Assembly: GCA_973895155.1 (NCBI GenBank)
Contig: OZ316894.1
Coordinates: forward strand, 9,523,440 to 9,587,439
Direction of reading: 5' to 3'
DNA: 64,000 nucleotides
From: Marsupella aquatica
Taxonomy: Eukaryota > Plantae > Marchantiophyta
This document shows, in pieces, positions 1 to 61,415 of this stretch. Position numbers and translations under genes: made by a program. The notes under the pieces are model-generated. The model saw nothing but the letters and a program-made list of their open reading frames with translations. It ran no database searches and had not been told where the DNA came from. The first letter of the stretch is position 1. Every line of letters starts with the position of its first letter.

Positions 1-3000
1 GTCAGCCACATTACAAGGGACCTCCTCCCCCCCAACACTTGGACTGAAGTGGTGAGTGTTGGACAGAGGTAAGTGCACCTGGTCTGGATGCCATGTAGCA
101 GCACCATGGAGTGGTAGGGCTGGAACTCCTGATGCTAGATGAATGTACATCTGAAAAAGGATGCAAGTGACCAAAAGCCAAGTGAGAGCATTAAGATCCA
201 TTACCCTGCCAAGTAAAGCATTCCTGGCCAGCCTGGTGATTTTGGTGTGACCTGTAGTACTGGGTTGGAAGCCCATAGCCCGTTCTCTCTCCTCATGACT
301 AGGTTCATCCCATGTACCGGTAGAATGTCGATAAACCAGGCCAGGACCATCAGTGCCCTGAAAATCATGTGCACCTGGAAAGGACACAAATATAGGCCAA
401 GCAGCACGGGGCTGTCCAATGGTATTGGCTGGATACCAAGGTGCTGGCTCTTGCCGTGTAACTGGTTGGCAAGAACTGTCAGGATCCAAAATCTGGTCCA
501 CTGTGAGGTTAGTGTCCCTGGATGTGTGGTGAAGAGCTAACTCCAACAAGGAAGGTGGTGCAAGGTTAGTCCAAAAGTTACGAAGACGATGTGCATAAGA
601 ACCACAGTGCACTGCATCAATGAGAAGGGGTGGTCCCAAGTAGTGTTGGAGCACACTGAAATCCTCTTTGACCTGTGGACGCTGGTCAAACTGAGATGGA
701 GTATTCTCAATGATATAACCAACAGCAGGATAAAGGGATTGAGCCCAGGTGAGAATCTGAACCAATGCTGTGAAAAGGCCAGAACAAGAATCATGCAGTC
801 CAGCACCATGACCAGCAGCTGAAAACCCTTGGCATTCCCAACCAGCTATGATCAAATCAAGGGAGCCAAGAAGGGTTAAGTGCCGGTGCTAGACAAGCTG
901 GATATCTGGAGGAAAGAAAGAAAATGCAGACTTCCATGCACTATGTGGAAACTGCTGAGGAAATCGCTCTGAAAATTCCAGCAGACGGGATTCAGCCACT
1001 TGCCTTGCACCTGGATCAATATCCACATAGATGTAGTGCTTCACCACCATGCCAGACTGTAGGAGAGCTTCCAGGCCTATAGAAATGCCACCAAAAAGCT
1101 CAAGCAATGTAAGGCCATCCGGAGCAGGAGTCCATATAACTGGTGCGCTCAAGATTGGGGCTATTGGCTGTCCATTGTGCTGCCCAAGGTCTTCAAACTT
1201 GTGCAATGCAGCCACCAAAGGTCCATGGGCTGCTTGGAGCCGTTGTACCACCTTTGGTTGATGATCCACGTTGCTGGAAAGTGCTGCTATACATGCAGTA
1301 GCATGTGCAGCAGCCACCTCATCGTCATCCTCCTCAATCCAATCTTGCAATGGGTGGTTGACATAGGTAGCTGTGTGCACTGCTTTCAACACACATTGGT
1401 GAGCCATAGGTGTATGGGCACCATGCAAATCAAGTGGAATGTAGCCCAAGTGTGAGCCATCAGTATGCCAATCAACTCTGTAGTATGCATGCTCATGCCA
1501 GTTGTCAATGGTAAAACCTGGTGGGAACAAAGCCTCCTGGCCAATGAGCACATCATACGTAGTGGCATTAGTAACCAAACATCTGACTGGGAAATGCAGT
1601 TCTTGATCTGTACCTCCATTAAAAGTGAGAGTGAGTAAAGTAGACCTCTCACCCAGCACATCCTCCACAGTGCCACTAGCAGTCCGAATGTGCCACTTGG
1701 ATTGCTGTAAATGATCAGTCAACAGTCCCATCTTCTTGGCAAACTGAATGCCCAATATCACTGGTTGAGCACCTATGTCTAGCATGACCACCTGAGGAGT
1801 GTGACCCTCCAACTTGACCACTGAATTCCTGTTGTCAACAATGGCAATGGTGGTGGAAACTGAAGTCCTGTCACTAGGCACCACTCTCGGCAAATGATGA
1901 GGTGCCTTGTGAAGGGAGTTAGTGTCCACGGTCTTTCCACTCAACAACATAGCCAGGAAAGATGGAGCAGCATGACCAGAATCAAGTGTAGCTCTGGTCA
2001 CACAATCAGCAGCAATCGGTACTGGGGCAGCCAAACCAGTGGAAACATGTAAAGGAGAAGAAGAAGGTCCAGTATGTACATGAGATTGGACCTCAAAAAC
2101 TGGTGTCACAGGGGCTGATGAAGAATGCAGTGAGCCCTCTAGCGCTCTGATGACAGCTCTAGCATCCAGCTGTAAATCATGACAACTGAAAAGTGGAGTT
2201 GTAAGAATCCTTTGTGCCATACCGGAGGTGAAATGCTCAAGCAGCTCAAGAGAAACAACTCCCTGTGAAATGTCAGCAGCACCTGGTGGTGGAATGGATG
2301 TAGCTGCAGCTCCCTCCCCCCTCGCCAACAAGGTGCGCTCTTCAGCAAGTGTGAGTGGCTGAAAAGATTGGGGCATGACAGCCCGAGCTCCCCTGGCTCT
2401 AGTCATAGGACCGGCAGCAAGACCATCAGCCTGTACAATGCAGCGTGTGAGAGCAATACGGGGGGCAGCATTGGCGTGCTGGGAAGCAAAATAAGAAGGG
2501 CAGAAGGAATCTGAAAATTCTGCTATAAGGCCAGGCTGTGTAGCAGAGGACAGCACACACTCACCCATATGAGCATCAAAGGGCAAGCCATAGAAAGAGC
2601 GGGGTAGAGGTGCTAAACTGTCAGTGGTGCCTAGGCCAGGGATGGGTTGCACGTGACCAGCCGGTTGAGAAGGACCAGTAGAGGCAGTTGACTTGCCTTT
2701 GATGTTGGCAAGTTGGGCACGTAGGGACTCAACCTCATGAGTCAGAGACTAGAGTTGAGTTGCGTGTGCGTTGTGAGCCTCCTTCTGAGCTGGTTGCTTT
2801 TGTTGCTACTTGGGCAATTTGTTAGCACCGGGTGCTTTGCCACTGGAAGGAGGAGCAACTGAGGCAATAGGAGCCCTCCTAGCTGGTGGGGGAGTGGAAG
2901 CAGGAGCAGGATGAGGGGTTTGCTGTCGTAGTTGCTTCCTCTCTGGGAATTGGGCAAAACAAACTGCCTCCAAGTGGCCCACTCTCCCACAAAAATCACA

Positions 3001-4201
3001 AGACATGTCCTCAGCAACAATATCACATTCATTAGCCTTGTGATTGGGTTACCATAGTAGTTGCAAGATGGCAGCATGAAAGCAGCATGGGCTGGCTTGG
3101 TCTTGGAACCATACTATGGCACACGGGAAGGAGTGGCCAGTGTAGGGGCAGCAGCCTGGTACCTGGATCGCGGTGGACGTGCAATACTGCCTCATAATGT
3201 GCATGGGCCAGCTCAAGTTTCTCAGCAGTGTCATAGACATTGAGCAGGGTGTAGCTGTCTCCAAACTCTAAGAATACTTGCTGCAACACTTGCGAATGGA
3301 AAGCTGGTGTGCCCTCCAATGTGTGAAGATAGCGATGAGCAGCTTCCAGGTCAGTGATGCTCTGGGTGTCCTCCTTCAGCTTGAGAAGTCGGCGATACAT
3401 CATCTTTAATGTTTCATCGCGCTGCCTCACAAAGGTGGCCAACTACATGATTTTGTCAGCACTCTTGATTAGGAATTCCAATTCAAGAACCTGGAAAAAC
3501 TCAGCCACCGGATCAGCAAAGGTAGGAGAATCAATGGTGGGAGAAATGCCTGATGTAGCCTGTGCCAAGACAGTGGGAGTAACTGGCGCAGTGGTAGGAA
3601 CTGGAGTAGGAGGGGAAGTGGCAGGAGCAGCAGCATGGGCTGCAATGGCATTCTGTAAGGCCAATTATGAGGCAGCCGCAATTGCACTGGCATAGGTAGG
3701 GTTAGGCAACTGTGTGACAGCAAGCAGCTATTGAGAGTGCTGCTCATACACATCTAAAGCCTCATGGTGCACATACCTGGCTAGTTGCTTAAATGCAAAA
3801 GCATTTGTGAAATTGTTGTCGTACTTCAACTCCAATTCGTCAACGACAATGTAAAAAGTGGATTTGAACTCACGTAAAGAAACAGTGCCTGGCCGTCCGC
3901 TGAAGCGCTCAATGCGGCCAGATGAGTGGCTAGCATCCATGTTGTATGTCGGTGAAGTTGGAACAACCACTGATGCAGAAGGGGTAAATGGCAAGGAAGT
4001 GATAGCAGGCTTCGGGTTAGTGGTGAAGCGACCGCCAAATTGAGCAGAAGGATTGTGTGGTGTGGGTGCTACTGCTTGCGGACGTCGTCAAAATTGCCGA
4101 GACTCCAATGAAATTGGCACCAATGGTCGTGGATCACTCCGTAAATGGTACCTGGGTGTCGGTGGCAATGTGCTGCTACCTCCTGGCTCATCGGCTGACA
4201 T
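1..4201 (-). pseudogene. Disrupted gag-pol polyprotein: Gag, 2x CCHC zinc knuckle, aspartic protease, cytosine-5 DNA methyltransferase
   Basis: Manual translation from ATG 4201 (MSADEPGG...). Gag-like IERFSGRPGTVSLREF and FVRQRDETLKMMYRRL; knuckles CNY(Y)GNPNHKANEC and CDFCGRVGHLEAVC (~3063-2960); protease VMLD(I)GAQPVILG...YDVLIGQEAL (~1790-1530); DNMT from ~1115. In-frame stops at 4088, 3728, 3665, 3443, 3114, 2806, 2749 and 889, and two frameshifts near 3180 and 3045. Confidence 0.88.
190..1115 (-). pseudogene. C5-cytosine DNA methyltransferase domain within the retroelement polyprotein (one premature TAG at 889-891)
   Basis: Motifs in canonical order, all in one frame across the TAG: I LLELFGGISIG, II YIYVDID, IV DLIIAGWECQGFS, VI YIIENT, VIII AHRLRNFWTN, IX EERERAMGF, X RNALLGRVMD. 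Confidence 0.92.
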
Positions 4202-4669
4202 GCTGCATGCTCACCCGGGGTGCCAATGGGAAAGAAATTGACAACAAAAAAGAATGGCAGCCCCCAAGGCTAAGAAATAAAACCCACAAAGGGAACAAAC
4301 AGTGCGAGGTAGAAATGTGTCGAATGTGTAAACACACAGAAAAACCGTTGGCAAAGAAAAGACCCTTAAAAACTCCGGAAAGGCCTAATGTTGGCAGCAG
4401 TAAAGAAATCCGGGAAAAGAAAATAGAAGTGGCCCCCCTTAAGTGTATACATCGGGGCCCTGTGTGGACCCAGAAACCGGCAGCCGGCCGGCCGATTGTG
4501 TAAACACACTCTGGGCCCGGCGCCCTATGCACAGGCAGCCTGTGGAGGCCCTATGCAGGTCGTTGCGAGGTGGAAGGAAAGACAACTGCCGAAAAGAAAA
4601 GACAGACAGGCGGATTACGAGGCGGAAAGGAGGCGAGGCGGGAGGCGATGCAAAAGAAACCGGGCCAAA

Positions 4670-5090
4670 CCGGGCCCTCTTAATGGCATGAGCCCTCCCA
4701 TAGGGCTTCGTGCCCCACCTTAAGAGCTTCCGAAGGGAAGCTACGAACTCCCCCTCCCCTCCTTAATGAAATTGGGCCTGGTGCCCTGGTGACAGTATTC
4801 CCAAAGGGAACGGAGTCGAGTGTACTCCCCCTCCTCCCTTTAATGCTTCATAGGGCTGTGTGCCCTCTCCTCTCGCACTCTCGCAACCTCGCTTCAACTC
4901 CTCCCCCTCGTTAATGCTGAATGGGGCCTTGTGCCTGGCAGAAGGCTCCCGTGTGAGGGAGTTCGAATTGAACTCCCCTCCCCTCCTTTAATGCTGCCTA
5001 GGGCCTTGCGCCCCCCCTTCTCCTTATGCTTGTGCTCGGCTCCCCCTCCTGCCAACAGCTCCTATTAAGACCAGGGCACGATGCCCTATG
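4670..5090. repeat. Array of six degenerate ~71-79-bp units in the retroelement 5' leader
   Basis: Each unit is a CTCCCC-rich tract, then TTAA(TG), then GGGC-N5-GCCC. Dyads start at 4703, 4774, 4853, 4924 (GCCT), 5001 and 5074; the intervening sequence varies. Confidence 0.85.
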
Positions 5091-5318
5091 TGCGTAAGGC
5101 GGAGCAAAAGGAGCGTGCGCGGCCCTATGTGCGGCCCAGGGGCATTGATGGGCCCCGAATGTGTGTATACACAGGCAGGGTAGCTGCCGGACCGGAAGCA
5201 GCTCGCGATGGCAGCTGCCGAGTAAAGAAAAAGGGGTCGCGGCCGGGGAATAGCTCACGACGGAAATTGACCGGGGAACACCAAAAAAACGGCCTCACGT
5301 ATGTCGATCAGCAGCAAG

Positions 5319-5330
5319 TCGCCTCCACTT
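5319..5330 (-). promoter_or_regulatory. Putative primer-binding site
   Basis: The minus strand reads ...CTATCACA AAG TGGAGGCGAC, i.e. TGG (complement of tRNA CCA) 3 nt after the putative LTR end. Confidence 0.55.
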
Positions 5331-5763
5331 TGTGATAGTCGATTGGCAGTCGTAAGTAGGTCGTGCTGCGGCCGACGGAGGCAACACTCAACGGAAGGGA
5401 TCACGGACGCAACTTGGAAGGAAAAGCTGGGTTCCAATAGAAGCGTTATGTGTATACTTACACATAACGCGACATTAAAACCATAATTTCAACCCGTTCC
5501 TCCATTGTTGCTCAAAGAAATTGCACCGACTTCGACGGGAATTGTCTGGACCGATATAAGCAGCTGAGACAAGAATGTCTCCTACCTTCTTCCCCTCGCC
5601 GGCAACTCGACAGTTCTTCTTGAATAAAAGGCGTAAGAGAAACAATTGTACTGAAATCGAATCGAAAACCGGCAGGATGCCAAGATCGGCCGGGAGCATC
5701 TAACAAATCTCTATGTGAATCCCGTGTACGGAACCGACGAGCACTGTCTGAGCTCTGTCAACA
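5331..5763 (-). repeat. Putative 5' LTR (~430 bp)
   Basis: TG...CA ends with imperfect inverted termini (TGTTGACAG / CTATCACA), adjacent PBS, TATA-like GCTTATAT near 5555. The second LTR is outside the window, so the outer boundary is tentative. Confidence 0.55.
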
Positions 5764-6271
5764 ACGATTCAAGAAGAACTGAAAACCAACAAAGAAAGAC
5801 ATGCCCTAAGTAGATCAAGTCAAGACGTCACACTAACAAGCACGTTTTGCTTCAAGAACGGCCCAGATTTGCTACAAGAACATGACACTAACTCAAGTAG
5901 TACACTAGCCCTAACTACATACCTAGCGGGCATGCAAGGGACATGCCGATGTGCACAAGCGGCACTGTCCCTCGGCATGACAATCAGCCATATGCCATGA
6001 TCATAAGTCCCTCTAGAGGCTAGTGGACTTATGATCATGCCAAAAAGCTGTTGCCATTGTTTATGGCCAAAAACCCTAAAAAATATAAAATAACCTTGTG
6101 AAAAAAGCTATGGCCATCTGTTTATGGCGAAAATCAGCAGCTATAACTAAGAACTGTAAGATGTGCTATTAGAGTTCACTGAATGTTAAATATATTGTAG
6201 GCCATTTAGGTCTCTAAGGACATTATTGGGCCTCTTTGGTGAACATAAGTGTGAGTAGAGTGAGCGCTTCA

Positions 6272-6440
6272 TTTTCTACACAAGCGTCTTCAAACGTTTG
6301 CTCAATGGTAAAAAATGAAACAAACTCATTTTTCAAGAAGGCGCTGCAGTTTTCTACACAAGAGTCTTGAAAAGTTTGCTCAATGGTAATAAAACAAAAC
6401 AAACTCATTTTTCAAGAAGGCGCTGCAGTTTTCTACACAC
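6272..6440. repeat. ~80-bp tandem duplication
   Basis: TTTTCTACACAAG..GTTTGCTCAATGGTAA..AACAAACTCATTTTTCAAGAAGGCGCTGCAG occurs twice head-to-tail. Confidence 0.85.
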
Positions 6441-7166: not shown

Positions 7167-10100
7167 TCAGGCAGCTATCAATCTCATACTGAAGTCCCAC
7201 AGCTTCTGTTGCAGTTCTTCCTCAAGAGCATATTTATATTTCAATTCATACTCCTTGCCATTCGCAAAGTATTTCCCTGTTATTCCTTTCACATGAGGGC
7301 TTACGGATAGAAACGTCTGGAGAGAAGCACCCTGCATTCAAACCAACGCAAAACTTTTAGAACCAAATTATCTACTTCCACACGGGGTCTCATTAGAATG
7401 GTAGATAAAACACAAGCAACAGAACACCTAGAAATAGGTGGTAGCAGAGGAATCAATGAAACTGAAAGTGCTAATATCAATTGCTCGGGGGTCTCACTAT
7501 ATGGAGGACCCCCCCATCACCTGCGACGTTTTCATGCCTAGACCCCCATACTTATTAAGTTAAAAAAAAAAATTCCTCCCTCTTTCTTTCTTCTAAGAGT
7601 CTAAAATCCAATTTGTATTGCCCCTATAATTTGTGAAGTAAAGTGTCACATATCAATAAAAAATGCCTAGAAAGAAAAGATAAGTCTATGTCAGTACCTT
7701 GTGAAGTCGTATGTCAGACATGGCACGCCCTGTAACAGTTCTTGCACACGGGAGTGCACTAGCTCGCCTCCACAACAAAGGCACCAAAACCCGATCGCCA
7801 ACAGCAGCTTTTAGCAGCCCAAATCCGTGCAGTAGCCCAGCGCTGCAAGTGCAGCTCAATGGAGCTCAAGGAAGTACGTGTAGCCCAGCTCAATGTGCAC
7901 CTCAGCTCAGCTCAATGCAGCCCAGCTCAATGCAACCTAGCGCAGCTCAATGCAGCCCAGCACAGCTCAGCTCTAGCTCGGATTGCAGCCCAGCTCAACC
8001 AGATTACAACTCTGAACTCGATCGCAACCCCAACTCGCAGCCCACCTCGCAGCCACCTCGTAGCCCACCTCGCAGCCACCTCGCAGCCCACCTCACAACC
8101 CACCTCGCAGCCCACTATCGATCAATAGAAACTGTAGTTCAACATTGATCATAACCTGCAACAGCCCGATTCATAGCACTTCTTCTGGATCAACACAAAG
8201 CAAGCAGTAAAAAGTGAGCAACACAAACCCGATCGCCAACAACACCTTTAGCAGCCCAAATCCATGCAGTAGCCCAGCGCTGCAAGCGCAGCTCAATGGA
8301 GCTCAGCATAGTACGTGTAGCCTAGCTCAATGTGCACCTCAGCTCAATGCGCAACCCAACTCAATGCAGCCTAGCGCAGCTCAATGCAGCCCAGCGCAGC
8401 TAAGCTCTAGCTCGGATTGCAACCTAGCTCAACCAGATTGCAGCTCAACTCTGAACTTGATCGCAACCCACCTCGCAGCCACCTCGCAGCCCACTATCAA
8501 TCAATAGAAACTGTAGCTCACATTGATCATAACCTACAGCAGCCCGATTCATAGCACTTCGTCTCGATCAATACAAAGCAAGCAGCAAAAAACGAGCAGC
8601 ACAAACAAAAGAAACTAAGGATGATTGTTGAAGCAAGCAAGATCGAGCACTCCCATACCTGAACTGAATAGAGCAGCACTTGAACTCTTTGAGCAAGCAG
8701 GTGCGACTCCCGTTTGAGCAACCCTCACAGCGCAGCACCCCTGTGTGTGCAAGCAGCAATGGAGCACTTCGAGCAAGCAATGCGCACCTCCCGTTCAGGC
8801 CCCGTTTCAGCAAGGGCCGCATACACTCCTATGTGTGCAAGCAGCAAGCACCAATGCAAGACTCCCGTTAGCAGCGCAGCACTCCCGTTAGCAATGCAGC
8901 ACTCCCGTTAGCAACATAGCACTCCCTTTGGACAAACAAGATGCTATGGAGGCATGCGAGGAACAAATTGGGCGCTAACCAGGGACATTCAAAATGGTCC
9001 CCCAAAAACCCTAAACATGGAGGCCGGGTACGAGTCGAAACCTACCCCACTCTCGTATATACCCCATCCAAAACTCTTGCCATGTCTCAAATATGTAGAC
9101 TACCCAATTGAGTACCCCCTATTTTGAAATGGGTGCCACGTGTCCCAATCCGATGGTGACACGTGTATACCTTGTTTTCTCATAAGATATTACCCTATCT
9201 TTCCTCAACCCATTCCATGGACATTGAACCCCCCCGCAAACAACCCTATCATTCTTTAAAGTGTATTTATGATTATATTGACCCCTATTGTTCTTACACA
9301 AATCTTCTTAAGTCTTTCCTATAATCTAATAAAATGACCCTACACTTTCTCGCACGTGATGTGCCGTTTTCGCGAAGTGAGACCCCCGAGATCAATTGTA
9401 CTGGAGACCTCACTTAAGTGTCCTGCCTCTTTGTGTTGCGAGTCATTCTATTCTCGTCAAGTCAAATCTTTTGGAATAGAATTACGGGAAACTCAGCAAA
9501 GTCTTCAGATTATGAAGATTTTGTTGTTACATCCTAACCAGAATATGAACTTCTAGTCTAGTTAGATTAGTTAGTCGTCTTGTAGACCTTGACTGCATGA
9601 TTGACGAGGAGCACACAATGGGATGATCTACAGAGTGATTGATCTGTGCTAAACGCAGCTTAATGGCTTCTGGCGGACAGGGTTTGTTACAAAATGTGGA
9701 GAGCATGTCAATTGACTAGAGGGAAGAATGTACGAAGAGTTAACTTACCTGGGAAGTAGTTAAACCGAATAATAAGAACGCAAAATTGATGACGGCTGCA
9801 AGTCACAACCGTAAAAAGAGGACTTCAGTGACCAAAACCAATCTGAACATCGGATGATGGCCTGTATAAACAAATCAACATTGTTCTTTACTTCAGAAAG
9901 TGTCGCAGTGATACTTACGCTTCATCCACGAAGGCGCTTGGACCGCAAGGTTCGTCCTTACCATACCAGGATGAAGGCTGTTTACTGTAACGTTCTTAAC
10001 ACCTTCATCCTGCGTTCAACAATGGACGTCAAATACGTACGCATCTTCAAAATTGAAAGAACCAGGGCACTTTGCTTAAACAGAAAGATGCAGGTAATGC

Positions 10101-36200: not shown

Positions 36201-38393
36201 CAAAGGCGCAGACAAAAATTAAGGAAGAAATCCATCGATACGGTAATGTGGAGTCTTGCAACTAGATTTGGATTTCTGGAGTGACTGAAAAGGAGGTGGG
36301 GTCCCGAGGGACGCGAGCTTGAGCCGGCTTTGGAACTTGGGAAGGAAGGGAATAGGAATGAGGGCATTGAGGGGGCGTTGGACGGAAGCAACGGCTAGAA
36401 AGGTCAGCAACTCGGCATTTCACACGGCGTGACATGAGATTCGTAGATTCCGACAGAGATGGACCGTATGAGAGAGTTGAAATTTTCCACTGACAGTGGA
36501 GGGACAGTCAGTTCGTGAGTTTCGAGAGAATGAATGTTGAACGAATGATCAATGCCGTTATTGTTGGTGCGACTTCGATGGAAAGACTGCTGCTGCTGCT
36601 GCTGGCACTGGCACAGGCACAGCCCCGGAGTGAGCAAGAGAGGAGCGAGGAGGAGGCAGGCTGTACAGCGCTGCTGGGGCGAGGATCGAGGAGACTCGCC
36701 CTCGTCTGAACATTCAAAATTCGCGGAGCGCGATTAGGGTGCTTATTACTTTCCGCCCTTCCTCACCACCCCAGCGCAACACATGAATATTTGATTTCGT
36801 AGCTATTCAAGTTCGTGTGGTGACAGGTCAGTGGAGGCTCCCTTTGGCTTCATGATCTCGATGGAATTAACGGTCCCTCTTCAAATCTGTGGTCGTGTCT
36901 TGCCTACGAAATGTGCAGATGAGTGGCTTTCGAGATATGGATTTCGTCAGTCTTAGGCAATAGAATGGATGTGCAGGATTTGTTCTCTGATGTGAGTTGT
37001 TCTCTGATGTGAGTTCGTTTGAAACCGTAGTCGAGTACGTCAATGTCAAAACTCTAGTCGAAACTTCGCTGAAGGTGGACGAGAGGTCCGAGCTGATCTA
37101 CTTTAGTTAGATCTCGGCATTTCACTCTCGATTTGTAGACTTTCGCACATGTAGGACGACTGACAGTTCATTGTCTGTTTGACATTGCTCTAAGTTTGTT
37201 GGAGGTCTTATCCTAGAGTTTAGTCGACCTTGCTTTGTGGATTTCTGTCGCACGCCTTCGATGCCAGGTCTCCGTCGGTGACAAGTACGTCTTAATTGCA
37301 CTTAGCTGACATTTGAATAGAATGTCAGTCTCGTTTCAGCGAAGGCTCTCAAACAGCGCTCACACATAACCTATTGATTGGCAAATACTAGACTTTTTAA
37401 AACTCACCATTCAACGGGTTTCACTTCCCTTCGCTCTCAGCATCTCACTGTCTTTTGGGGTCATAGCTGTTTTCCCTTCCTTAAAGGTGCACGTAGCCCC
37501 TTTGTGCTGTCATTTGTCTTCAGATATGGACTGTTAAGTTTTTCTTGAAGAAACTAAACGTCCCTGCCGAATTTCACCATTGTAGTCCTGTTTTTCGTAT
37601 TCACCCGAGGGGCCGATGCTTCTGTTGGGTTGAAGACTAACAGGTCCAGCGGCTTGAATGGATAGCTTAAGGGAGGCACTCGAGGTTAGCTGATCTGAAA
37701 GGAGCTACTCATTCTTATGCATCTTGTCCGAGTCAATCATTGCGCAATCATCTACGCATTTCCTTCCTCTAGGCGTCCTTCCTAGACCACTGGCTGGACT
37801 TGGTTTCAATATTCAATTGCCCATCCGGGGCTTTTGGGTTAGAAAAATAATCTCCCTATTCTGTCAGATTTACAGAGCACTTGGAGACCCCCGGCGAACA
37901 TGGTGCATTTACGAAATTCCGAGAATAGATATAGGGATTAGGCTCTGGGAAGAAGAATTGTAAGCTTCTGCTCATGTAGTTTTTGCAATAAATGGTTCTG
38001 TCTGTGGGTCTTTGTGACAGGTGATTGCTGCAAGTTTCACCAGTGGCATGGACAAAGGAAGGAACGAAGAGGGATGGTATCTCCTGTGGATCTGTTCAAT
38101 TTGACAGAGACTTGGTAGTGCCAACGGGAATTTCCTCTGCTCTCAGGGAGAAACGGTTTTTGTATTCTATCTAATCGAGCTGACTTCAGATCATGGGAAT
38201 GGGAATCGCCGCATGGATAGTGTTGATGTCGCAATACCAGAAGTGGAAGTTAGGGGCGGTGGTGGACATTTATTAGAATCAACTGGACGGAGGTAGCGTC
38301 TTCGTTATCATCCCACTTGTCATCGTCGCTGTCCTCCTGAAGTTGAAGAGCACAGATTTCAGCTTCCCAGAATTGAAAATTCCCCATTTTCAG

Positions 38394-40632
38394 ATGCCGA
38401 CAGGAATTCGAATTAGCAGTCCAGGGCGAGAACAACGTGCTAAATTTCCAGGGGCGGGAGGAGGAGGAGGAATAGGAGAAGCGTTTTCATGGTTCCCTTC
38501 CGCCCCTGGCTCATTGACATCTTCGCTCAAAATCACGCCTCTCACCCCTGCCATTGGGGCCACAGTGGAAGGCTTGTCTCTCGCGGACAGCTTGTCCCCG
38601 AAAAATCGCGATCAGATCAGGGCAGCATTGCTCAAGTTTCAGGTGCTCGCCCTTGCTCAATTGCAATCTTCAGCTATTGGATTCTTTTAGAGCCTGCATC
38701 AAAAGCTCGTTCGTATGTTTCCTTGATACTTATCCTCATTCGAACAGGTATCCACCAATAAGATCCTCTGAAGACACTCATGTGCAATTTGGGTATCTTA
38801 GTTGAGCTCTTTGTTTGGGCCTAAGCCATTTTGATTCGCTCCGAGTCGGCGGTCTATTCAACAGGTTGAAAGGAAAACAGAGTGTGATTAAAGCATTGGG
38901 ATTGGAGTATCTAGATGTCGTGCACTTCTAGGCTGGGATCAATGTGCAAGCCGGATACCGTCGGCCTGTTTCTGGACCGGGCTTCATCGACTCAGCAGGC
39001 CAGATGACGGAGTAGATGTCAAGATATCACGGATGCGGGATGCGGAATTTGCTGTAGTCTCCCTGAGGCTGCCCCGCTGACCTGTCAAATTCGTTCTCTT
39101 TAGGCAACATAGGACTCCAAATGCAATGTCGACTGATTTCTCCGGCGAAAGTGTGAACTAAATCAGCTGAAAATGCAACTGGAAACGTATCCAGTTCACT
39201 TCCTTCGGGGAACTGTTTCAAAGACTAAAGACTGTACCTGACCTTCGTATTAGCATAATGCAATAGGCCTGATGAAATTGATTCTCTTGAATGGTCCTAC
39301 TTTTCTTCCACAGGTGCTGATCTTCCGAAAGCAGCCGCTGACCCCTTATCAGCAGCGAAAATTTGCTAGATATTTCGGCGAGTTACATATCCACCCGATC
39401 TACCCTAACTTGGGCCCGGAGCTGCCGGAGATCACGGTGCTCAAATTCGATGCCGAAAATTCTCCCGATCAAGCGGATCACAATTGGCATACTGACGTTA
39501 CATTTATAGACAACCCTCCCTTAGGCTCGATACTGTCAGCCAAAGTGCTGCCTCCGTTGGGAGGAGATACGTTGTGGGCAAGCGGGATTGCAGCGTACGA
39601 GGGTCTCTCGAGGCCTATGCAAACATTGTTGCTCGGGCTGACTGCGGAGCACTCGATCATGAAGGCATTCCCGGCTCCGAGGTATCAAGAGAAAGCCAGC
39701 TGGGACGCTTACGAAAGATGGGAGGAGGCTATCAAAGAAAATCCCCCGGTCGTCCATCCCGTTGTCAGAACGCATCCTGAGAGCGGTCGGAAGGTAACGA
39801 ACTCTACTCCATCATCCACCTCGTCGACCTACTATGTCCAACTCCACTTCAGAAGATTGACATTTGGCAAATCAATTCAGACGCATTAAAATCATGAATG
39901 CTGAGTAGTGGTGAAGAATTCTCGTTCAGGTTCATTGAACTCGTAATTTGGGAATAGTGATGAAGAATTTTCCTTTGGGATCATTTGGGCTCAAGTGCGC
40001 AGTCCTGGATCTCCCAACATTTGTGTATGACTACTGCCAGCTGAGTTTTCTTTAGGGCTGCTGAAGTGGTATTTCACCGATGTGGGTTCACACTTCTGTA
40101 GGGATTGTACCGACAACAAGCATAGTTCTCGAACGTTTCGTGAACAGGATTAAATTTCTGTGGGTGGCAATGTAGCATTGTACCCTAGGATTGCTCTCCA
40201 GGTCTCAAACGAAAAGACTCCTTGTCAGGTTGACACAAGACCAGTCCTAGTTCGCATGTTGAACACTTCGGGCGCACACGTTTTAGATGGAGATGGAGAT
40301 GGTCAGAATAATTGATCAAGTTCCCCAAAAGTTTACAGTTTGCGTTCCATCAGGGAGATTGATTGTTGGTGGGATTGTCTGTGCAGGCACTCTTTGTGAA
40401 CAGGGGATTCACAGTACGCATTATTGGGTTGAAGCCCTCGGAGAGTGATGCGTTGCTCAACTTTCTGTATGAGCACACGACGAAACCAGAGTTCTTCCTG
40501 CGCTGGAAGTGGCAAAAGGACGATGTTGCCTTTTGGGACAACCGAGTTACACAGCACTATGCCACCGCCGATTACATGCCTTACACCCGAGTTATGTACC
40601 GCGCCACTGTTATGGGCGACAGGCCTTATTGA
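38394..40632 (+). CDS. tauD: Alpha-ketoglutarate-dependent taurine/sulfonate dioxygenase (TauD/TfdA family), 3 exons
   Basis: Exons 38394(?)-38642, 39314-39793 and 40387-40632 with phase-0 GT-AG introns. Motifs [32 protein letters not shown] (HxD), [37 protein letters not shown] (distal His), RVMYRAT. Start codon uncertain. Confidence 0.93.
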
Positions 40633-40894
40633 TGTTGTAGATGATTCACCCATTCGTTGTGACGGTTTAGGAACTCCGATTTTTCCAGACTCTCGAGTGC
40701 TAGTCTGTGGTCGAAGCAAACCTTGGTCATCTGTTTCTGCTTGAGCGAAGATAATCACTAGTCTCATGTATATAACAGACTAGTGTATCATACCGACTGT
40801 AGAGTAGTCCCCAAAGGTCATTCTGTTTGAGGTATCTGAAGCTGCCTAGCCGTAGCAATGAGTCCTTTCAACAAAATGAAGTTGAAGTTCTGGT

Positions 40895-52103: not shown

Positions 52104-53369
52104 ATGTCTTTGAGGGGTGTCCAATTTTGTACCCAAACAAAACTAGGGGGCAGGAGTAGTAATACATTGACTACAATCAGAAATGATCTAGTCAATGGAG
52201 ACAAGGAGTTTGAGGATGGGAGTAGGATGATAACACGTCATGGACACCTTGCGGGTTATAATTGTAGTGCTAGCCAAAGGAAAGATTTGGTGCAAGAGGA
52301 GATGGATCCATCCCTGTGGGGATCTCTCACCGAAGACATTGAGGATCGCATCCTTGCATGGTTACCATTTGACGCCTTTGCAAAGATGCGCACTGTCTGC
52401 AAGAGATGGAATGACATTCTAAGATCGTCAACTTTTCTCCAAGTGTATAGAGCAATTCCTGCTCCAGCCCACCCCTGCTTCCTCATGTTTGATGCAAAGG
52501 ACTGGACTATGTGCTGGTTGTTCAATCCATCCATCACTCGTTGGCACTCTTTCCCTTTTGACTTCGAGTGCAGTGAATCCAAATTCCCATGTGCTGCAGC
52601 AGGGGGCCTCATGTGTTTTTGTGGTGCAACCTCATACCCTAACATGTACGTCTGCAATCCATTAACTAGGCAGTGGAGAGAAATACCTCCCAGGAAAGAG
52701 AAGCGATTCCCCAATATGGTTGGAATGGTGGTCAATGAGTCCTCAAAAACCTTCAAGCTGGTTGTGGCTGGAGATTATCACGGTGTGCATGTCACATCCA
52801 CTGAAGTTTTTGACTCTGAGACCAACTCATGGGTGACTACAGAAGGAGATCAGATACCAATTGTTCGTCTAACTCCTAGAAACTCATCTTGCCTTGGATG
52901 TATTTTCTGGCTAACTTGTGATCCATTTGGTTTGATTGCTTTCAATTTGGAACAAGCAGAGTGGACCACACTCCATGCTCAAATGCCTGCTTTTCTCATA
53001 TCCCCTCACCTTGTGGGATGCACAAATCGTTTGCTCATGGTAGGTGGGGTGAAGAAACAGATTGCACCAAAGAGCATTAGGATTTGGGAGTTGGACATGA
53101 CGTCAATGCAGTGGGATGAGGTGGCAAGCATGCCACCAACTCTTTGTAGCAGATTTTTGAAAGACTCACTCACTGGGGATTTTATGTGCATAGGTCAAAA
53201 TGACCTCATTTGCTTTACAAGCTACAAATGCTCTCAAGCTTTGATGTATGATGTTTTGAAGAAGGTTTGGCAATGGTTGCCTGCCTACCCCTTTCTGTCT
53301 GTGCTTGACATCTACCGCTTGCATATTGGATTACCCTTCACCCCTCATTGGGACATTGGGGTCTTCTAA
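52104..53369 (+). CDS. F-box protein with kelch-like/FBA beta-propeller (intronless)
   Basis: F-box LWGSLTEDIEDRILAWLPFDAFAKMRTVCKRWN followed by AAAGGLMCF, YVCNPLTRQWREIP, TEVFDSETNSW and W-x-EVASMP repeats. The true start may be a downstream Met (e.g. 52302). Confidence 0.92.
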   Translation: MSLRGVQFCTQTKLGGRSSNTLTTIRNDLVNGDKEFEDGSRMITRHGHLAGYNCSASQRKDLVQEEMDPSLWGSLTEDIEDRILAWLPFDAFAKMRTVCKRWNDILRSSTFLQVYRAIPAPAHPCFLMFDAKDWTMCWLFNPSITRWHSFPFDFECSESKFPCAAAGGLMCFCGATSYPNMYVCNPLTRQWREIPPRKEKRFPNMVGMVVNESSKTFKLVVAGDYHGVHVTSTEVFDSETNSWVTTEGDQIPIVRLTPRNSSCLGCIFWLTCDPFGLIAFNLEQAEWTTLHAQMPAFLISPHLVGCTNRLLMVGGVKKQIAPKSIRIWELDMTSMQWDEVASMPPTLCSRFLKDSLTGDFMCIGQNDLICFTSYKCSQALMYDVLKKVWQWLPAYPFLSVLDIYRLHIGLPFTPHWDIGVF

Positions 53370-56266: not shown

Positions 56267-57545
56267 AACGACTCACATTGACTACTAAGGGCATTACGGC
56301 AATCTCTAGGCTGGCTAAGCTGAATAGCATTAATTGTCCTCGAGATTAGCTTTCGAACATGATCCCTATCATTGTACGAAAGCCGCCAAGGGAAAAATTC
56401 CATTAATTTCATTGCAGCGCTGCATTCATTGAAACTTTATCACGAAGCTTTGGATTGCTATGGATCGTGATATGCTGCGAAATTTGGAGTGCTATGGATT
56501 TTGATATGGCACGAAACAGCTGCCATTGAACGTTTACGACAGACGAATGTCGTCGACTATACTTGTCTGTGGAGGCCGGGAGAGAGCCAAAAATCGTTTC
56601 GAAATCCACTGCGACGACTTGAAGCCCAGATGCCGGGTTCCCCAACCAAGAGTCCAGAACTGAACTCTGGATTGTTAGGGAATGTACATTACAAGGTGCG
56701 ACTGTTTTCTCCTCTCTCAATGTGTTCTGTCTTTTGCAATCTTCTTGTTCTGAAGGCCATTGTGGCTTTTGTCATGGCAAATCCTTAACTTCAGGCTTTC
56801 AAAATGTGGTGAAAACTGAGGTAGATGTTTTGAGCCAATCAACCATTCTTTTTCACAGACGTCCCGGTTGTGACAACAGTTTGTGCTACCAGTCCTTCTT
56901 TGCTGGAATTATATGATAGGCTCGCAAGTGTACAGAAGCTCTGTAAGTCCTTTGGATCAATGGTTTCTTCATTAGCTCTTCTTATTAGTTGCGTCCGTTT
57001 CCATCCGTATCCCTACAGTCGTCGCCACGCTTTCGGCTAGGCGTTGCAGCTTCTCCTAGCTGGCCGCTCGTCTGTAATCGAGCTTCCAGACCTTCACTCT
57101 AATCATCGAGCTGTGATAAGCCGGGATCATCGAGCTGTGGGAGTGGATTAACGATTGTGCTATCTTTGAGCACTCCTTTCAAGAGAAGATGTTTCCTCCC
57201 GCAGCGTGGTTTCGCGTGTCTTCGCTGGAGATGCCCGTGAGCAAAAGATATCGTTTTGGAAACAGAACAAACTACTGTAGCTAGAAATCAAATTCCGCAA
57301 AGCAAACCAAATGAATCTCGTCGACCCCACAATTGCAAGTACCAGGAACTGTACAGTAGAAAATGTGTACTGTTCAATAGCTCAATCACAGAGATTAGGC
57401 TGCCTCCATTTAATTGGATGATATTTTCGTCAACTGTGGTTGATTGCACTCGTGTTGTTAATTCACATTGCTTATGTTTCTACAGCCTGTGGGATGCGAC
57501 AGGAACGGCTGTAATCAAGGTTCATTAGCTGGTGATGGTGCCAAA

Positions 57546-58550
57546 ATGAACAGCGATGGAGAACCCTGGTTGTCAATGACCGTGATAGAGAGGGTGAGGC
57601 ATATACACCGTCGTTTGGTCGAGAACAATGAGAGGAGATCGTACGATTTCAAGATAGAGTGCGCAAAGGAACTGCACATGCCGGGATTTGGCAAGCGCAC
57701 CGATTCGGCTGTGATCACGGCTTTCGACAATTATTTTCAGCTAGCGTACAGGACGGGCCCGGTGTGGCTATGTGTGAACAAAATATTGAGGATGTGGGAG
57801 AATGAAATGCTGAAAGGGCAGAGGAGAGGCACTGAAGATGGCGTCAAAATTAAGCTTACACAATGGCAGCATATGCAAGGGATTTATGATGACACAATCA
57901 TCGTCCCCGTCCTTGAAAACGTCGTCCGGGGAAATTTTTCACTGCAGGAGATGGGGGAGGAGTTTGTCCAATACAAGCTCGTCTACAGTGTGCAACAGGC
58001 CTTCGTGAAAGCCTTACAAGGAGATACATGGGATACGTGCAAGGTTCTATACCCGGAACACGCAACTGACAAAGCTCTCAAGACATTCATTCCTCTCTTC
58101 AAATGCTGGGTCAGTTTTAATCTCGACTATGTTCAGTTCTTCCACATATTCTTATGCTAAACGGGTGTAGATACATATTGGGCAGTGTTGGGCTTTATAT
58201 TCTGAAGCAATTTCGACTTCTCAATGTAGCCATAGGGCATGTCCATTTCTGCGCTTCTAAATCCGCTATTAAATTTACATTTCATTGAATACATCTTTGA
58301 ATGACTTTGCTCTCACATTTAGCTCTCCTTTAATTACACGAAGTCTCGATCTTCTAAGTAGCTTTATCCTTTGTCGAGAAATATTTTTCTTGTGATTCGT
58401 CGGACCCAGCTCTGATTGATTTTGTTGTGTCTGTTTGTGCAGAAGGATCCGACTAAGAAAAAACGAGCGTTCACTTCAGAGCTCACAGAGTTGCCGGACG
58501 TGTTCATCGCACACATTCAAGAAGCGCGGAGGTGGTCACAGAAGCAGTGA
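57546..58550 (+). CDS. Uncharacterised protein, copy 1 (2 exons)
   Basis: Exon 57546-58109 (MNSDGEPWLSMTVIERVR...LFKCW), GT-AG intron, exon 58443-58550 (KDPTKKKRAF...WSQKQ*). The intron position is conserved in copy 2. Confidence 0.65.
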
Positions 58551-60509
58551 GTACAGAGATATATTGTGAAATACAGCAATCTATAAATCTCTACAGTGAT
58601 TCACAGAATTCAGATTTGGAAGACCTTCATTCTTCTGTTTCTCTCGAGAAAGATCACTTTTGAAAAGCACTAGGTGTGATGATTCTCACGATTGATATGA
58701 AAAAACAGGAGGATTGAAGGGGGCTAAGTTTGACTGAACGGAAGGTGGAAAGAGTTGGGAACGCAGACAGAGCAAGTTTTCGGGGTCTAACATTCTTACA
58801 TTCACTGTTGTATTGAGTAAATTTGTCGAGGCGTGTCTGGCCTGAGAAAGCTAGACCACTTTGGAAAAGCACGATGTGTGATCACTCTATCGATTAACAT
58901 AAAAAATTCCGGGAGGATTGAAAGGGGCCTAGTTTGGCTGAACGGAAGGTAGAAAGACATGAGGGAACGAAGATAGAGCAATTTTGGGGGGTCTAACTAT
59001 CTTACATTAGCTGTTGTGTATTGAGTAATTTCCTAGAGGCATATCTTGCCTGACATGTTGGATTGACATCGAGTATGTTAACGTTTCGTGCACTTAATCA
59101 TGTGAATGTTTCCCTCTCTGATATAGTGGTTGATGAACTTTTATAATTTGTTAAGGCCCTGTTTACGGATCCCCCATTTGAGATAACCATAGATGCCAAA
59201 CTCATCTGAGCAATATAATTGACTTATGTGTGAGTGTATCCGATGATTTAGCCCAAGTCATATCCTCAACTCAAGTACATCCGAATGCCTCAATGAAAGA
59301 TTATAATTCTTTTCACAACTTTCGTGATTCAACATACACATTAGTGTGATTCCCGGTAAAAACTGATTTGGGCACTAATTCTTCACTTACACTAATTCCG
59401 GTGGACACGGTAACGAGGTTACCAGTACCTCATATGTACTCATTAATTGGCATTGAAACTACTACAGTACGAAGTGGTCTCTATCTCTGTATCGTAGCTG
59501 CCAACGGAATTCTATTCATGAAACTTCACCACGAAGCATTGGAACGCTGAGGATCGTGATATGCCTCGAAATCTGGAGTGCTGTGGATCGTAATACTGCA
59601 CGAAAGAGCTGCAATTGAACGGCTACGACAGGCGAATGTCGTTGACCACTTGTCTGTGGAGAGGACCAAAATCAATTAGAAAGCCACTGACTGCGACGAT
59701 TTGAAGCTCAGAAGCCAGGACCTCCACGAGTCCAGAACTGAACTCCAGATTGTCTGGGAGCCCACATCACAAGGTACGAGTGTTTTCTCCTCGCTCAATG
59801 TGTTCTTTCTTCTGCAATTTCTTGGTCGTTTGGCTATGGAGTCTTTCGCCGTAGCAACTTCGGGCTTGCAAATGTGGTGAAGTCACGTCTGAGGTTAAGG
59901 GTTTTGAGTCAATCAACCACTCTTTTTGCAGACGTTCTGGTTGTGACAAGAGCTTGTGTTACCTGTCCTTCTTTGCTGGAGTTATATCATCGGCTCGGAA
60001 ATGTTTTAGCTCTGTAAATCGTTTCAGTCAATGTTTTCTCATTAGCTCTTCTAATTAGCTGCATCGGTTTCTATCCGTGCTCTTGTATGAGCTGCAATTG
60101 TCGCCACGCTTTCGGCTAGGCAAAGCAGCTGTCGTCTAACTGGCCGCCGTCTGTGATCGAGCTTCCAGCCCGTCTGATCGTCGTCTCTGGGAGACGCCCG
60201 TGAGCAAACATTACCTTGTTGCGAACAGAACAAACTACTGTACTGTAGCTAGCAACAAGTCGCAGAATCTCGCAGACCCACAATTGCAAGTAGCAGGAAC
60301 TGTGCAGAAAATATGTACTGTTTACAGAATTTAGGCTGCCACCATTTAATTCTCTTTCAAAGGTGGCAAGTACTTGGATGACTGGTTTTGTTGGAACTGT
60401 GTTTGATTGCACTCTTGATGTTAATTCACGTTGCTTATGTTTATGGAGCCTGTGCAATGTAGCAGGAACGGCTGTAGTCAGATTCATTTGAGCTGGTGGT
60501 CGTGCCAAA

Positions 60510-61415
60510 ATGAGCAGCGGTGGAGAATCCTGGTTGTCGATGACCGTGATCGAGAAGGTCCGGTTCATTCATCGCAGTTTGTTCGAGAACAGAGGGATGA
60601 GATCGCACGAGCTAGCGGAACTGGAAATTGCCAGACGCACGGATACAGCTTTTTACAGGTATTGTCTGCTAGCTTCCAGGACCGGCCCAGTGTGGCGACG
60701 TGTGAATAAGATATTCAACATGTGGGTCAATGGTGAGGTGAAAGGGCAGAAGACAGGCATTGAAGACGATGTCCAAATGAAGCTCACACAATGGCAGCAT
60801 ATGCAAGGGATCAATGACGACACAATCATCATCAACATTCTTGAAAAAGTCGTGCGCAAAAAGTTTTCATTGCAGGAGATGGGGGAGTGGTTCGTCGGAT
60901 GCAAGCTCATCTGCAGTGTGCAACAGGCCCTCGTGAGAGCATTACGAGAAGAAACGAGGGATTGTGTCAAGGCTCTATACTTGAAACCAGAGGACTCTGA
61001 TTTCAAGAGACATGATACGTGGGATATGTGCCAGATTATATACCCGGAACACGCAACCGACGATGCTGTCGAGATATTTGTTCCTCTTTTCAAAGACTGG
61101 GTCAGTTTCGAGCTCTATATTCAATGTTCATTTCTTCGACGATTCTCATTTTTAGATTTCATTGCATACATCTAAGAATGACTATGCTCTCAACATTTAG
61201 CTCTACCTTACTTACAAGATGTCTCGATCTACTTGGTACTCGATCTGTGATTGATTTTGTTGTGTCTGCTTGTGCAGAAGTATCCGACTAAGAAAAAAAG
61301 ATCGCTCACATCAGCGCTCACAGAGTTCCCGGACGAGTTCAATGCACACATTGAAGAAGCCCGGACGTGGGCACAGAATAACCTCAAATATGTTTTGGCT
61401 GCAATCAAAGGATAA
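60510..61415 (+). CDS. Uncharacterised protein, copy 2 (2 exons)
   Basis: Exon 60510-61100 (MSSGGESWLSMTVIEKVR...LFKDW) and exon 61278-61415 (KYPTKKKRSL...AIKG*); clearly paralogous to copy 1, with in-frame indels. Confidence 0.65.

Follow-up and report, generated by a model that had tools for sequence, protein, structure and literature searches.

The window, a 64,000-nt stretch of Marsupella aquatica contig OZ316894.1, almost certainly contains the 5' half of a dead Ty3/Gypsy-type retrotransposon copy with a DNMT3-like domain between protease and reverse transcriptase (RT). On the minus strand, Gag is followed by two zinc knuckles, then by the protease and last by a DNMT3-like C5 methyltransferase domain, which is complete (Table 1). 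The protease and the methyltransferase domain share one frame (2748 to 1), and RT, integrase and the 3' repeats fall beyond the window, whose edge precedes RT.

Table 1. Features of the element copy in the window, in order of transcription
Feature	Position	Strand	Remarks
Candidate 5' terminal repeat (A), with neighbouring repeated DNA	5401..5982	-	Putative; TG at 5982; inner end not fixed
Leader, terminal repeat to gag	4202..5400	-	Imperfect repeats of ~130 nt at 4746-5022
gag	3188..4201	-	Stops at 4090, 3730, 3667, 3445; tblastn matches to relatives
Two CCHC zinc knuckles	2959..3065	-	First broken, second whole
Aspartic protease, retroviral-type	1528..1818	-	PF13975
Protease-DNMT linker	1114..1527	-	~135 aa; less conserved
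DNMT3-like C5 cytosine methyltransferase domain	145..1113	-	Motifs I-X, unpermuted; TAG at 889-891
Start of DNMT-RT linker	1..144	-	Cut by window edge; collinear with P0075

An earlier sequence-only reading had placed the methyltransferase motifs in the protease frame and directly downstream of the protease. The frame was confirmed, but a linker separates the two domains. It had also placed Gag and two CCHC knuckles upstream of the protease, and this order was found, except that the first knuckle (3065-3025) has lost one cysteine and contains a frameshift; the second (3000-2959) is whole. The zf-CCHC Pfam match in the window was below the cut-off (E 0.029), and both knuckles are whole in the relatives P0040, P0070 and P0075. 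By tblastn, the Gag segment 3940-3188 shared 67-69% identity with the Gag ends of two relatives, P0075 and P0040. Gag of the relatives starts at a Met matching 3940 and not at 4201, which is a possible longer start. The window protease matched PF13975 with E 3.8e-5 and 24.6 bits, below the 28.2 cut-off, which the protease of the Calypogeia relative exceeded at 34.1 bits, and a triad census of 71 loci showed that it differs from the family's usual active-site triad. In a collinear tblastn alignment, window position 1 corresponded to residue 1314 of 1549 in P0075. Self-comparison of the leader repeats gave 69% identity over 133 nt, and read depth over the leader was much below that of the coding region. 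An F-box gene neighbours the element in the window and shows the host to be a streptophyte; the nearest named relatives of the element point to a bryophyte. An exact-sequence search of the protein collection did not return the F-box protein.

The window copy is dead throughout. Seven stops interrupt its coding path (codons starting 3730, 3667, 3445, 3116, 2808, 2751 and 891), and the frame shifts twice, around 3188 and around 3045; if Gag starts at 4201, the TGA at 4090 is to be added. The TAG by which the sequence-only reading had explained why most of the domain is hidden in the ORF track does split the DNMT domain, just ahead of motif IV, but the other stops and the frameshifts accompany it. 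A frame of 619 aa is open upstream of this TAG, as might be expected if the host had domesticated the element as a gene of its own. We consider such a gene very unlikely, given the stops, the frameshifts, the high copy number and the contigs from other copies, which carry a different letter at stops 891, 2808 and 3116.

We then compared the copy with its relatives. A protein of the liverwort Calypogeia fissa (CAM6101866.1, 1549 aa) is open and collinear with the window from Gag to RT, at 59-67% identity. The comparison set comprised 80 peat-moss-like loci, partly redundant. Because the search patterns used to retrieve them contained motifs I and IV, the conservation of these two motifs is in part a product of the selection. 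Among loci with room for the domain in question, the protease lay upstream of DNMT in 72 of 73 and RT downstream of it in 62 of 63, beginning about 500 bp past the DNMT domain; integrase was present in 32 of 33 and a PHD finger in 27 of 33. The order in the relatives was Gag-PR-DNMT-RT-RNaseH-integrase-PHD, and the single-ORF relatives P0002, P0004, P0006 and P0007 (2300 aa) carry every domain in this order. The sequence-only reading had named as refuting conditions the lack of RT/integrase or a second LTR beyond the window and the absence of the protease-DNMT junction from all other family copies; these did not refute it, as the related loci carry the junction, RT and integrase. The results showed that the relatives have the Ty3/Gypsy pol order of RT, RNase H and integrase, while the window stops short of RT.

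RT and the 3' repeats lie outside the window, which would also fit a one-off chimera, an assembly artefact or a captured host DNMT3 fragment lying by chance after a Ty3 protease. This is extremely unlikely: the junction recurs across the loci and in named proteins from a liverwort, peat moss and Closterium, and the domain, which has no introns, shares 77% identity with that of the Calypogeia element. A one-off chimera in particular is refuted by the collinear Calypogeia protein and by the recurring protease-DNMT-RT order. DIRS identity (tyrosine recombinase) was likewise ruled out, as the relatives have target duplications and the core of a DDE integrase (PF00665); no recombinase family was among the Pfam matches of 24 proteins.

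The ends of 10 full-length loci were judged by eye. Full-length relatives had split direct repeats in the order A-body-B-A-B, TG...CA ends and 4-bp target duplications, which were exact in 6/10 loci (5 distinct insertions), had one mismatch in 3/10 and were unclear in 1/10. A twin of repeat B of at least 80 nt was present in nine of the ten and a 29-nt remnant in the other, a G-run lay ahead of repeat B in six, and 11 further loci of 81 scanned had a twin B-type repeat beyond their coding region. TGG did not directly follow A in any of 8 relatives examined. The canonical LTR layout, with one identical terminal pair and a tRNA primer site, was not found in the relatives. The proposal of a land-plant retrotransposon with its own C5 DNMT in Gag-Pol stands, as a Ty3/Gypsy element, but in place of a plain LTR pair the full-length relatives carry A-body-B-A-B.

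Within the window we found no LTR-like repeat pair, and split repeats were not visible there either; of the terminal features (TG...CA, duplication, polypurine tract) it shows the 5' TG alone. The first 9 nt from 5982 match the start of the relatives' A repeat, although a profile of 14 such repeats gave no significant match in the window, and upstream of window position 4000 there was no blastn match in any of the 80 loci. Read depth was high over 5401-6000 and near single-copy beyond 6000, and a single-copy contig of read run X3 (5955-6347) ends 28 nt inside 5982. We infer that the 5' boundary of the element lies at 5982. Two further X3 contigs, of 273 and 331 nt (2 and 6 differences), had depths of 1207 and 1292, whereas flank contigs with no differences stood at 17-18.5. 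The host genome holds many copies of the family.

The split-repeat layout recalls KnitGypsy-Dnmt3 of Klebsormidium nitens, described as a Gypsy element with DIRS-like A-coding-B-A-B repeats in the available text of de Mendoza et al. 2018 (PMC5890265). As described there, the two share a Gypsy domain set and the split-repeat layout, here seen in relatives rather than in the window, and in both the Pol ORF includes a Dnmt3-related domain that lacks introns and is under purifying selection. On the strength of the relatives' split repeats, the element most likely belongs with the KnitGypsy-Dnmt3 design and is not a separate invention, the likeness being to the published description. The hosts differ, being land plants here (liverwort, peat moss and the window genome). 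The sequence-only reading had named dinoflagellates and Klebsormidium as hosts of such elements. The same source reports SymbioDIRS-Dnmt3 of Symbiodinium; it resembles our element in its Dnmt3 domain in Pol with RT and its split repeats but uses a tyrosine recombinase, whereas the bryophyte-type family has the DDE core and 4-bp duplications. Chlamydomonas Gypsy-7a_cRei and REM1 share a Gypsy polyprotein with a PHD finger (PMC9940879); the domains listed for Gypsy-7a_cRei in the accessible part of that paper include no methyltransferase, and its repeats are described as LTRs. No report of a land-plant DNMT-bearing retrotransposon was found in the literature searched, a scope that left out most subscription papers, Repbase and theses, and 'KnitGypsy' occurred there in PMC5890265 alone. 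The available text of PMC12344493, PMC9861306, PMC11982613, PMC6453930, PMC10952607, PMC9940879 and PMC6673714 names no land-plant case; PMC12344493 gives 'streptophytes and dinoflagellates' only, citing the 2018 paper.

Judged by sequence and by a predicted model, the DNMT domain appears nearest to DNMT3, ahead of DRM, DNMT1/CMT, DNMT2 and bacterial enzymes. With the stop read as X, the window domain matched PF00145 at 22.6 bits (E 8e-5), just above the cut-off of 22, so the profile check proposed earlier for the read-through translation gave a positive result. All 17 of its 17 PDB sequence matches were DNMT3A or DNMT3C, and a family profile gave 5e-23 for DNMT3A, 1e-11 for DRM and 1e-9 for M.HhaI. 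The predicted Calypogeia domain (pLDDT 91) best matched DNMT3B/3A, with DNMT3B as the best fold (Z 28.1, rmsd 2.6, 268 aligned), compared with Z 24.5 for M.MpeI, 19.3 for DNMT1 and 17.8 for ZMET2. Host DNMT3 of non-flowering plants and animals (described in part in PMC6453930) likewise shares the unpermuted motif order and the fold, with DNMT3A/3B as best matches; structural alignments of the element domain with human DNMT3 give an identity of only about 20-26%. It differs from host DNMT3, represented in these comparisons by animal enzymes, in being embedded in Gag-Pol, in lacking introns and in its W-E-C motif IV.

Numbered by the C5-methyltransferase scheme, the motifs lie at 1107-1075 (I), 1029-1015 (II), 858-820 (IV), 714-700 (VI), 591-571 (VIII), 294-268 (IX) and 216-199 (X). 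In the window copy the catalytic Cys is intact, as are Glu-Asn of motif VI and the two Arg of motif VIII. Motif IV reads W-E-C against the canonical P-C, a trait of the family; the family Cys aligns with the DNMT3A catalytic Cys and is preceded by Glu. Among 180 retrieved domains, 109 had E-C, 54 P-C and 17 another motif or none. A rival reading draws on this non-canonical motif in most members, on the lack of a family-specific CG footprint and on the KnitGypsy-Dnmt3 domain, which gave no methylation in yeast (a result called inconclusive in the available text of PMC5890265): the domain could have been retained to bind DNA or to play a structural part, such as gripping the ends of the cDNA or anchoring the integration complex, while catalysing little or nothing. 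We consider this rather unlikely, since 12 members (31-73% identity) all have the catalytic Cys, Glu-Asn of motif VI and the first Arg of motif VIII and have largely preserved the SAM-binding motif, and E-C and P-C members are interleaved across the family.

The dN/dS of the window against the loci was 0.124 for DNMT (77 loci), 0.129 for Gag, 0.111 for protease and 0.33 (0.334) for the 95 linker residues adjoining DNMT, ratios that are rough because dS is about 2, near saturation. These values suggest that DNMT is under purifying selection, conserved as Gag and protease are. Among dead peat copies, dN/dS was 0.34-0.45 for DNMT, like that of RT (0.34-0.57), and DNMT was stop-free in 1 of 76 peat loci.

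We also examined CG depletion. CG O/E was 0.27 in the window element, 0.41-0.63 in the remaining window and 0.24 in the host F-box gene; in peat copies it was 0.31-0.40, no lower than in their flanks (0.09-0.40), and three algal-type elements with long open frames showed mild depletion only (0.55-0.80). As a footprint of self-methylation, CG depletion was non-diagnostic, the F-box gene and the peat flanks being similarly depleted. Another Gypsy fragment in a flank was set aside as a control because it was too short and undated. Twin-repeat differences fell at CHG (75/189) as often as at CG (97/306), in counts that are approximate because mutation alters context, and this fits host silencing. 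The main target of the enzyme might be the DNA of the host, either next to the insertion or in trans, so that it would shape chromatin instead of marking cDNA. An integrase and a PHD finger in the same polyprotein, the many copies in the host, and the role of true DNMT3 in moss, reported to drive de novo and heterochromatic methylation (PMC6453930, in part), would suit such an activity. We think it improbable in view of the similar CG depletion of flanks and elements and of the K. nitens methylome, which the available text of PMC5890265 describes as ordinary and plant-like despite its elements.

We lean towards the reading that the element's DNMT would methylate its own newly made cDNA inside the particle. 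As in other Ty3 elements, the polyprotein would be packaged and the protease would then cleave it. RT would make linear cDNA, with plus-strand priming at the G-run that precedes B, and the inner B-A junction is proposed as the likely template restoring both ends because no tRNA primer site is evident. DNMT would methylate this cDNA; CG is its most likely target, to judge from animal DNMT3 and from SymbioDIRS-Dnmt3, two domains of which methylated CG de novo in yeast according to the available text of PMC5890265. Integrase would insert the cDNA, probably steered by the PHD finger, and the new copy would arrive pre-marked, either passing as host DNA or starting quietly silenced.

Related elements were found in Closterium and, with the order RNaseH-DNMT-integrase, in chlorophytes (Haematococcus, Chromochloris, Hariotina and Cymbomonas). 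KnitGypsy-Dnmt3, in contrast, was treated as an acquisition of the K. nitens lineage in the available part of PMC5890265; no named Klebsormidium protein was among our sequence matches. The RT-RNaseH and DNMT trees divide into the same two groups. With midpoint rooting, the bryophyte group joins the other PR-DNMT-RT members; with an outgroup limited to 7 bacterial/phage sequences, it joins the chlorophyte group weakly (90/88). A phage origin was rejected, as viral contigs gave one partial 30% match and phage genomes E 7e-8 at best. A bacterial origin was rejected as well: 12 of 15 prokaryote loci were only partial (25-40%), and the remaining three, full-length, were entire retroelements on MAG contigs that are short and probably derive from contaminating algae. 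As a tentative joint reading, possible but doubtful as a whole, a Ty3 lineage would have captured DNMT3 once, before the chlorophyte-streptophyte split, and kept it since in two orders, PR-DNMT-RT in streptophytes and RNaseH-DNMT-integrase in chlorophytes; it would still be multiplying in bryophytes, replicating without a tRNA primer via split repeats and methylating its own cDNA with an E-C site.

On sequence grounds, a DNMT-bearing Gypsy design known from an alga appears to extend to land plants. What a transposon gains from DNMT3 was left open in 2018, with the Gypsy case treated as confined to Klebsormidium in the available text (PMC5890265). A large liverwort and peat moss family, some copies of which have open frames and which shows signs of having multiplied recently, brings this question to land plants with assembled genomes and with DNMT3, CMT and MET1 pathways of their own. 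DNMT inventories of bryophyte and algal genomes can miscount element domains as host genes, and LTR finders expecting one repeat pair may misread the ends of split-repeat elements. The related chlorophyte domains would put the DNMT capture much deeper in time, and, if the single-capture reading is true, a de novo methyltransferase borne by a transposon would accompany or replace the host enzyme in land plants and algae.

The sequence-only reading had proposed Gag, zinc knuckles, a protease and an in-frame C5 methyltransferase (DNMT) with a full motif set, and translation, PF00145 and PDB matches bore this out. The protease and the DNMT were about 135 residues apart in a single frame, and motifs I, II, IV, VI, VIII, IX and X, numbered by the C5-methyltransferase convention, were present in unpermuted order. 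PF00145, run on the read-through as that reading had suggested, gave 22.6 bits, barely above the cut-off, and 17 of 17 PDB sequence matches were DNMT3 proteins. The window copy is dead. The results showed seven stops (3730, 3667, 3445, 3116, 2808, 2751 and 891) and, around 3188 and 3045, two frameshifts in its coding path, a broken first zinc knuckle and a protease triad differing from that usual in the family; one stop, a TAG at 889-891, interrupts the DNMT ahead of motif IV. At stops 891, 2808 and 3116, all overlying contigs from three public runs containing the host's flanking DNA carried a different letter, indicating that these stops are not common to the bulk of copies.

Coordinates of the element and of other features in the window
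Feature	Position	Strand	Remark
Gag, two zinc knuckles, aspartic protease and C5 cytosine methyltransferase domain	3940 (or 4201) to 1	minus	
Aspartic protease	1818-1528	minus	
DNMT domain	1113-145	minus	same frame as protease
Perfect 12-bp hairpin stem, 4-nt loop	5443-5470		near inner end of repeated 5' region
Imperfect inverted repeat	5977-6057		77% over 83 nt; immediately outside candidate 5' end
Raised contig depth	7501-7800		overlaps the nested tandem repeats
Nested short tandem repeats	7700-8930		~435 nt unit duplicated at 90-93% identity
TauD/TfdA dioxygenase host gene	38277-40779		PF02668 at 39254-39886 (E 1e-32); looks split into exons
F-box/kelch host gene	52104-53369		single exon; nearest Atlas clusters streptophyte
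Tandem duplication, ~3 kb	56430-61897		76-88% identity; two related ORFs (57462-58160, 60492-61175), no Pfam match for either

Summed contig depth over 1-4200, which does not equal copy number, was 22,849-89,314 in public run X1 against 55 for the identical flank contig, and 1,099-5,079 in run X3 against 17-18.5 for the flank. In X3, one contig of 273 nt, differing from the window in 2 places, reached a depth of 1207, and another of 331 nt, differing in 6, reached 1292. These depths are roughly 65-70-fold that of the flank and suggest dozens of near-identical element copies and a recent expansion.

P0075 (CAM6101866.1, 1549 aa), a protein of Calypogeia fissa, has an open frame running from Gag into RT. 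The window was collinear with it as far as position 1, which lies within the DNMT-RT linker, and the two DNMTs were 77% identical; a fragment from Sphagnum magellanicum, annotated as a gene model, is 61% identical. A metagenome scan gave 422 confirmed stretches, the best 80 of which were retained as loci, partly redundant in that several are one insertion in different assemblies. At the DNA level these best 80 shared 64-69% identity with the window, and 60 of them reached up to 92% identity (median 85%) to the Sphagnum protein. Where the best 80 had room, the protease lay upstream of the DNMT in 72 of 73 loci and RT downstream in 62 of 63; an integrase was present in 32 of 33, a PHD finger in 27 of 33. 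Single-ORF relatives of ~2300 aa held the complete domain set in the same order; RT-RNaseH-integrase is the Ty3/Gypsy order. The recurrence of the protease-DNMT junction, RT and integrase in these relatives shows that the element is a member of a family and not a one-off chimera, the alternative raised from the sequence.

A profile of 12 family domains matched DNMT3A (5e-23) ahead of DRM (1e-11) and M.HhaI (1e-9). The Calypogeia DNMT domain was modelled at pLDDT 91, and DNMT3B/3A were its best matches in both Foldseek and VIA-align (Z 28.1, rmsd 2.6, 268 aligned), above M.MpeI (24.5) and DNMT1 (19.3); phage and bacterial enzymes were distant. In the DNMT tree, the window's DNMT grouped with Calypogeia and peat-moss-like metagenome sequences (support 100/100), which makes a bryophyte host likely. 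Motif IV is E-C in this group, and among 180 retrieved domains it was E-C in 109 and P-C in 54. By dN/dS, the DNMT (0.124) is constrained as strongly as Gag (0.129) and the protease (0.111), and the linker less so (0.334; dS near 2).

In 10 of 25 long loci examined, the coding region was bracketed by two copies of a repeat A of 290-340 nt. Repeat B flanked the 3' A on either side in nine of these ten, giving A-body-B-A-B, and the tenth held a B remnant. Full-length relatives ended in TG...CA. By eye, the 4-bp target duplication was perfect in 6 of the 10, which represent 5 distinct insertions, had one mismatch in 3 and was unclear in 1; 6 of the 10 have a G-run ahead of B. In none of 8 relatives examined was A followed by a TGG primer site. 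The split repeats and the missing TGG set the element apart from conventional LTR elements. The earlier label of LTR retrotransposon thus held for a Gag-Pol element with RT, RNaseH and integrase in relatives, but not for a plain LTR pair. KnitGypsy-Dnmt3 likewise combines DIRS-type repeats with Gypsy domains, as the Fig. 4c legend of PMC5890265 states. In loci L003, L012, L015, L048 and L059, the inner B-A junction consists of the CA end of B, exactly two bases and the TG start of A; the two bases differ between copies and resemble the dinucleotide trimmed from cDNA ends by integrases. Of the two ends, the window contains just the 5' one. We infer this boundary at the TG at 5982, where the first 9 nt equal the start of the relatives' A and contig depth falls beyond 6000, just outside it, but a profile of 14 relatives' A repeats had no significant match in the window.

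Profile searches gave 177 proteins within one length class and 542 clusters at 50% identity (E up to 1e-30). Named members included Closterium, with the protease-DNMT order, and the chlorophytes Haematococcus, Chromochloris, Hariotina and Cymbomonas; DNMT follows RT in the Haematococcus, Hariotina and Cymbomonas proteins holding both domains. The two orders were separated in both RT-RNaseH and DNMT trees. The second architecture, RT-RNaseH-DNMT-integrase-PHD, occurred in 79 of the 91 retrieved proteins that contain both domains (P0008, P0021, P0029, P0037, P0158, P0169, P0191 and others; also loci L083 and L084), had those four chlorophytes as named hosts and was monophyletic in the DNMT tree (100/100); literature searches found no published account of it. 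P-C motif IV characterises a sister group (P0003, P0046-P0048, P0090, P0137, P0138, P0146) whose Gag-protease-DNMT frames of 1300-1700 aa end without RT; RT could be encoded in another frame or be missing. Three contigs of 9-13 kb assigned to prokaryote genome bins, two of cyanobacteria and one of Minisyncoccia, carry entire DNMT-retroelements (L082:1548-6605, L083:3219-7637, L084:3207-7631) and are likely algal contamination. All 32 retroelement DNMT domains formed one clade against 7 bacterial/phage outgroups in a tree without host DNMT3 or Klebsormidium sequences; the trees differed in where they placed the root, and we put forward a single ancient DNMT capture as a hypothesis.

We propose that the Gag-Pol polyprotein would be packaged and then cut, that RT would produce linear cDNA with ends restored from the inner B-A junction, that the DNMT would methylate the element's own cDNA, probably at CG, and that integrase would insert the methylated cDNA. 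We lean slightly towards such self-marking because of the DNMT's position in Pol, its conserved catalytic residues and the yeast activity of two SymbioDIRS-Dnmt3 domains described in PMC5890265. Speaking against it, KnitGypsy-Dnmt3 was inactive in the same assay, a result its authors call inconclusive, motif IV of the family DNMT is unusual, and CG/CHG/CHH comparisons of the window element and peat copies revealed no methylation footprint. The window element was CG-poor (0.27) with CHG intact (1.23), as was a host gene in CG (0.24), and CG depletion in peat copies was no greater than in their flanks; twin-repeat differences were alike at CHG (75/189) and CG (97/306), with 202/1333 at CHH. A non-catalytic binding role for the domain and action of the DNMT on host DNA both seem improbable to us, and self-marking of cDNA is the reading we narrowly favour.

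A Gypsy element with Dnmt3 has already been published for Klebsormidium (PMC5890265), and literature searches, with most subscription papers and repeat databases outside their reach, found no land-plant report of one. The feature is real, and it is a published design with a notable range extension.
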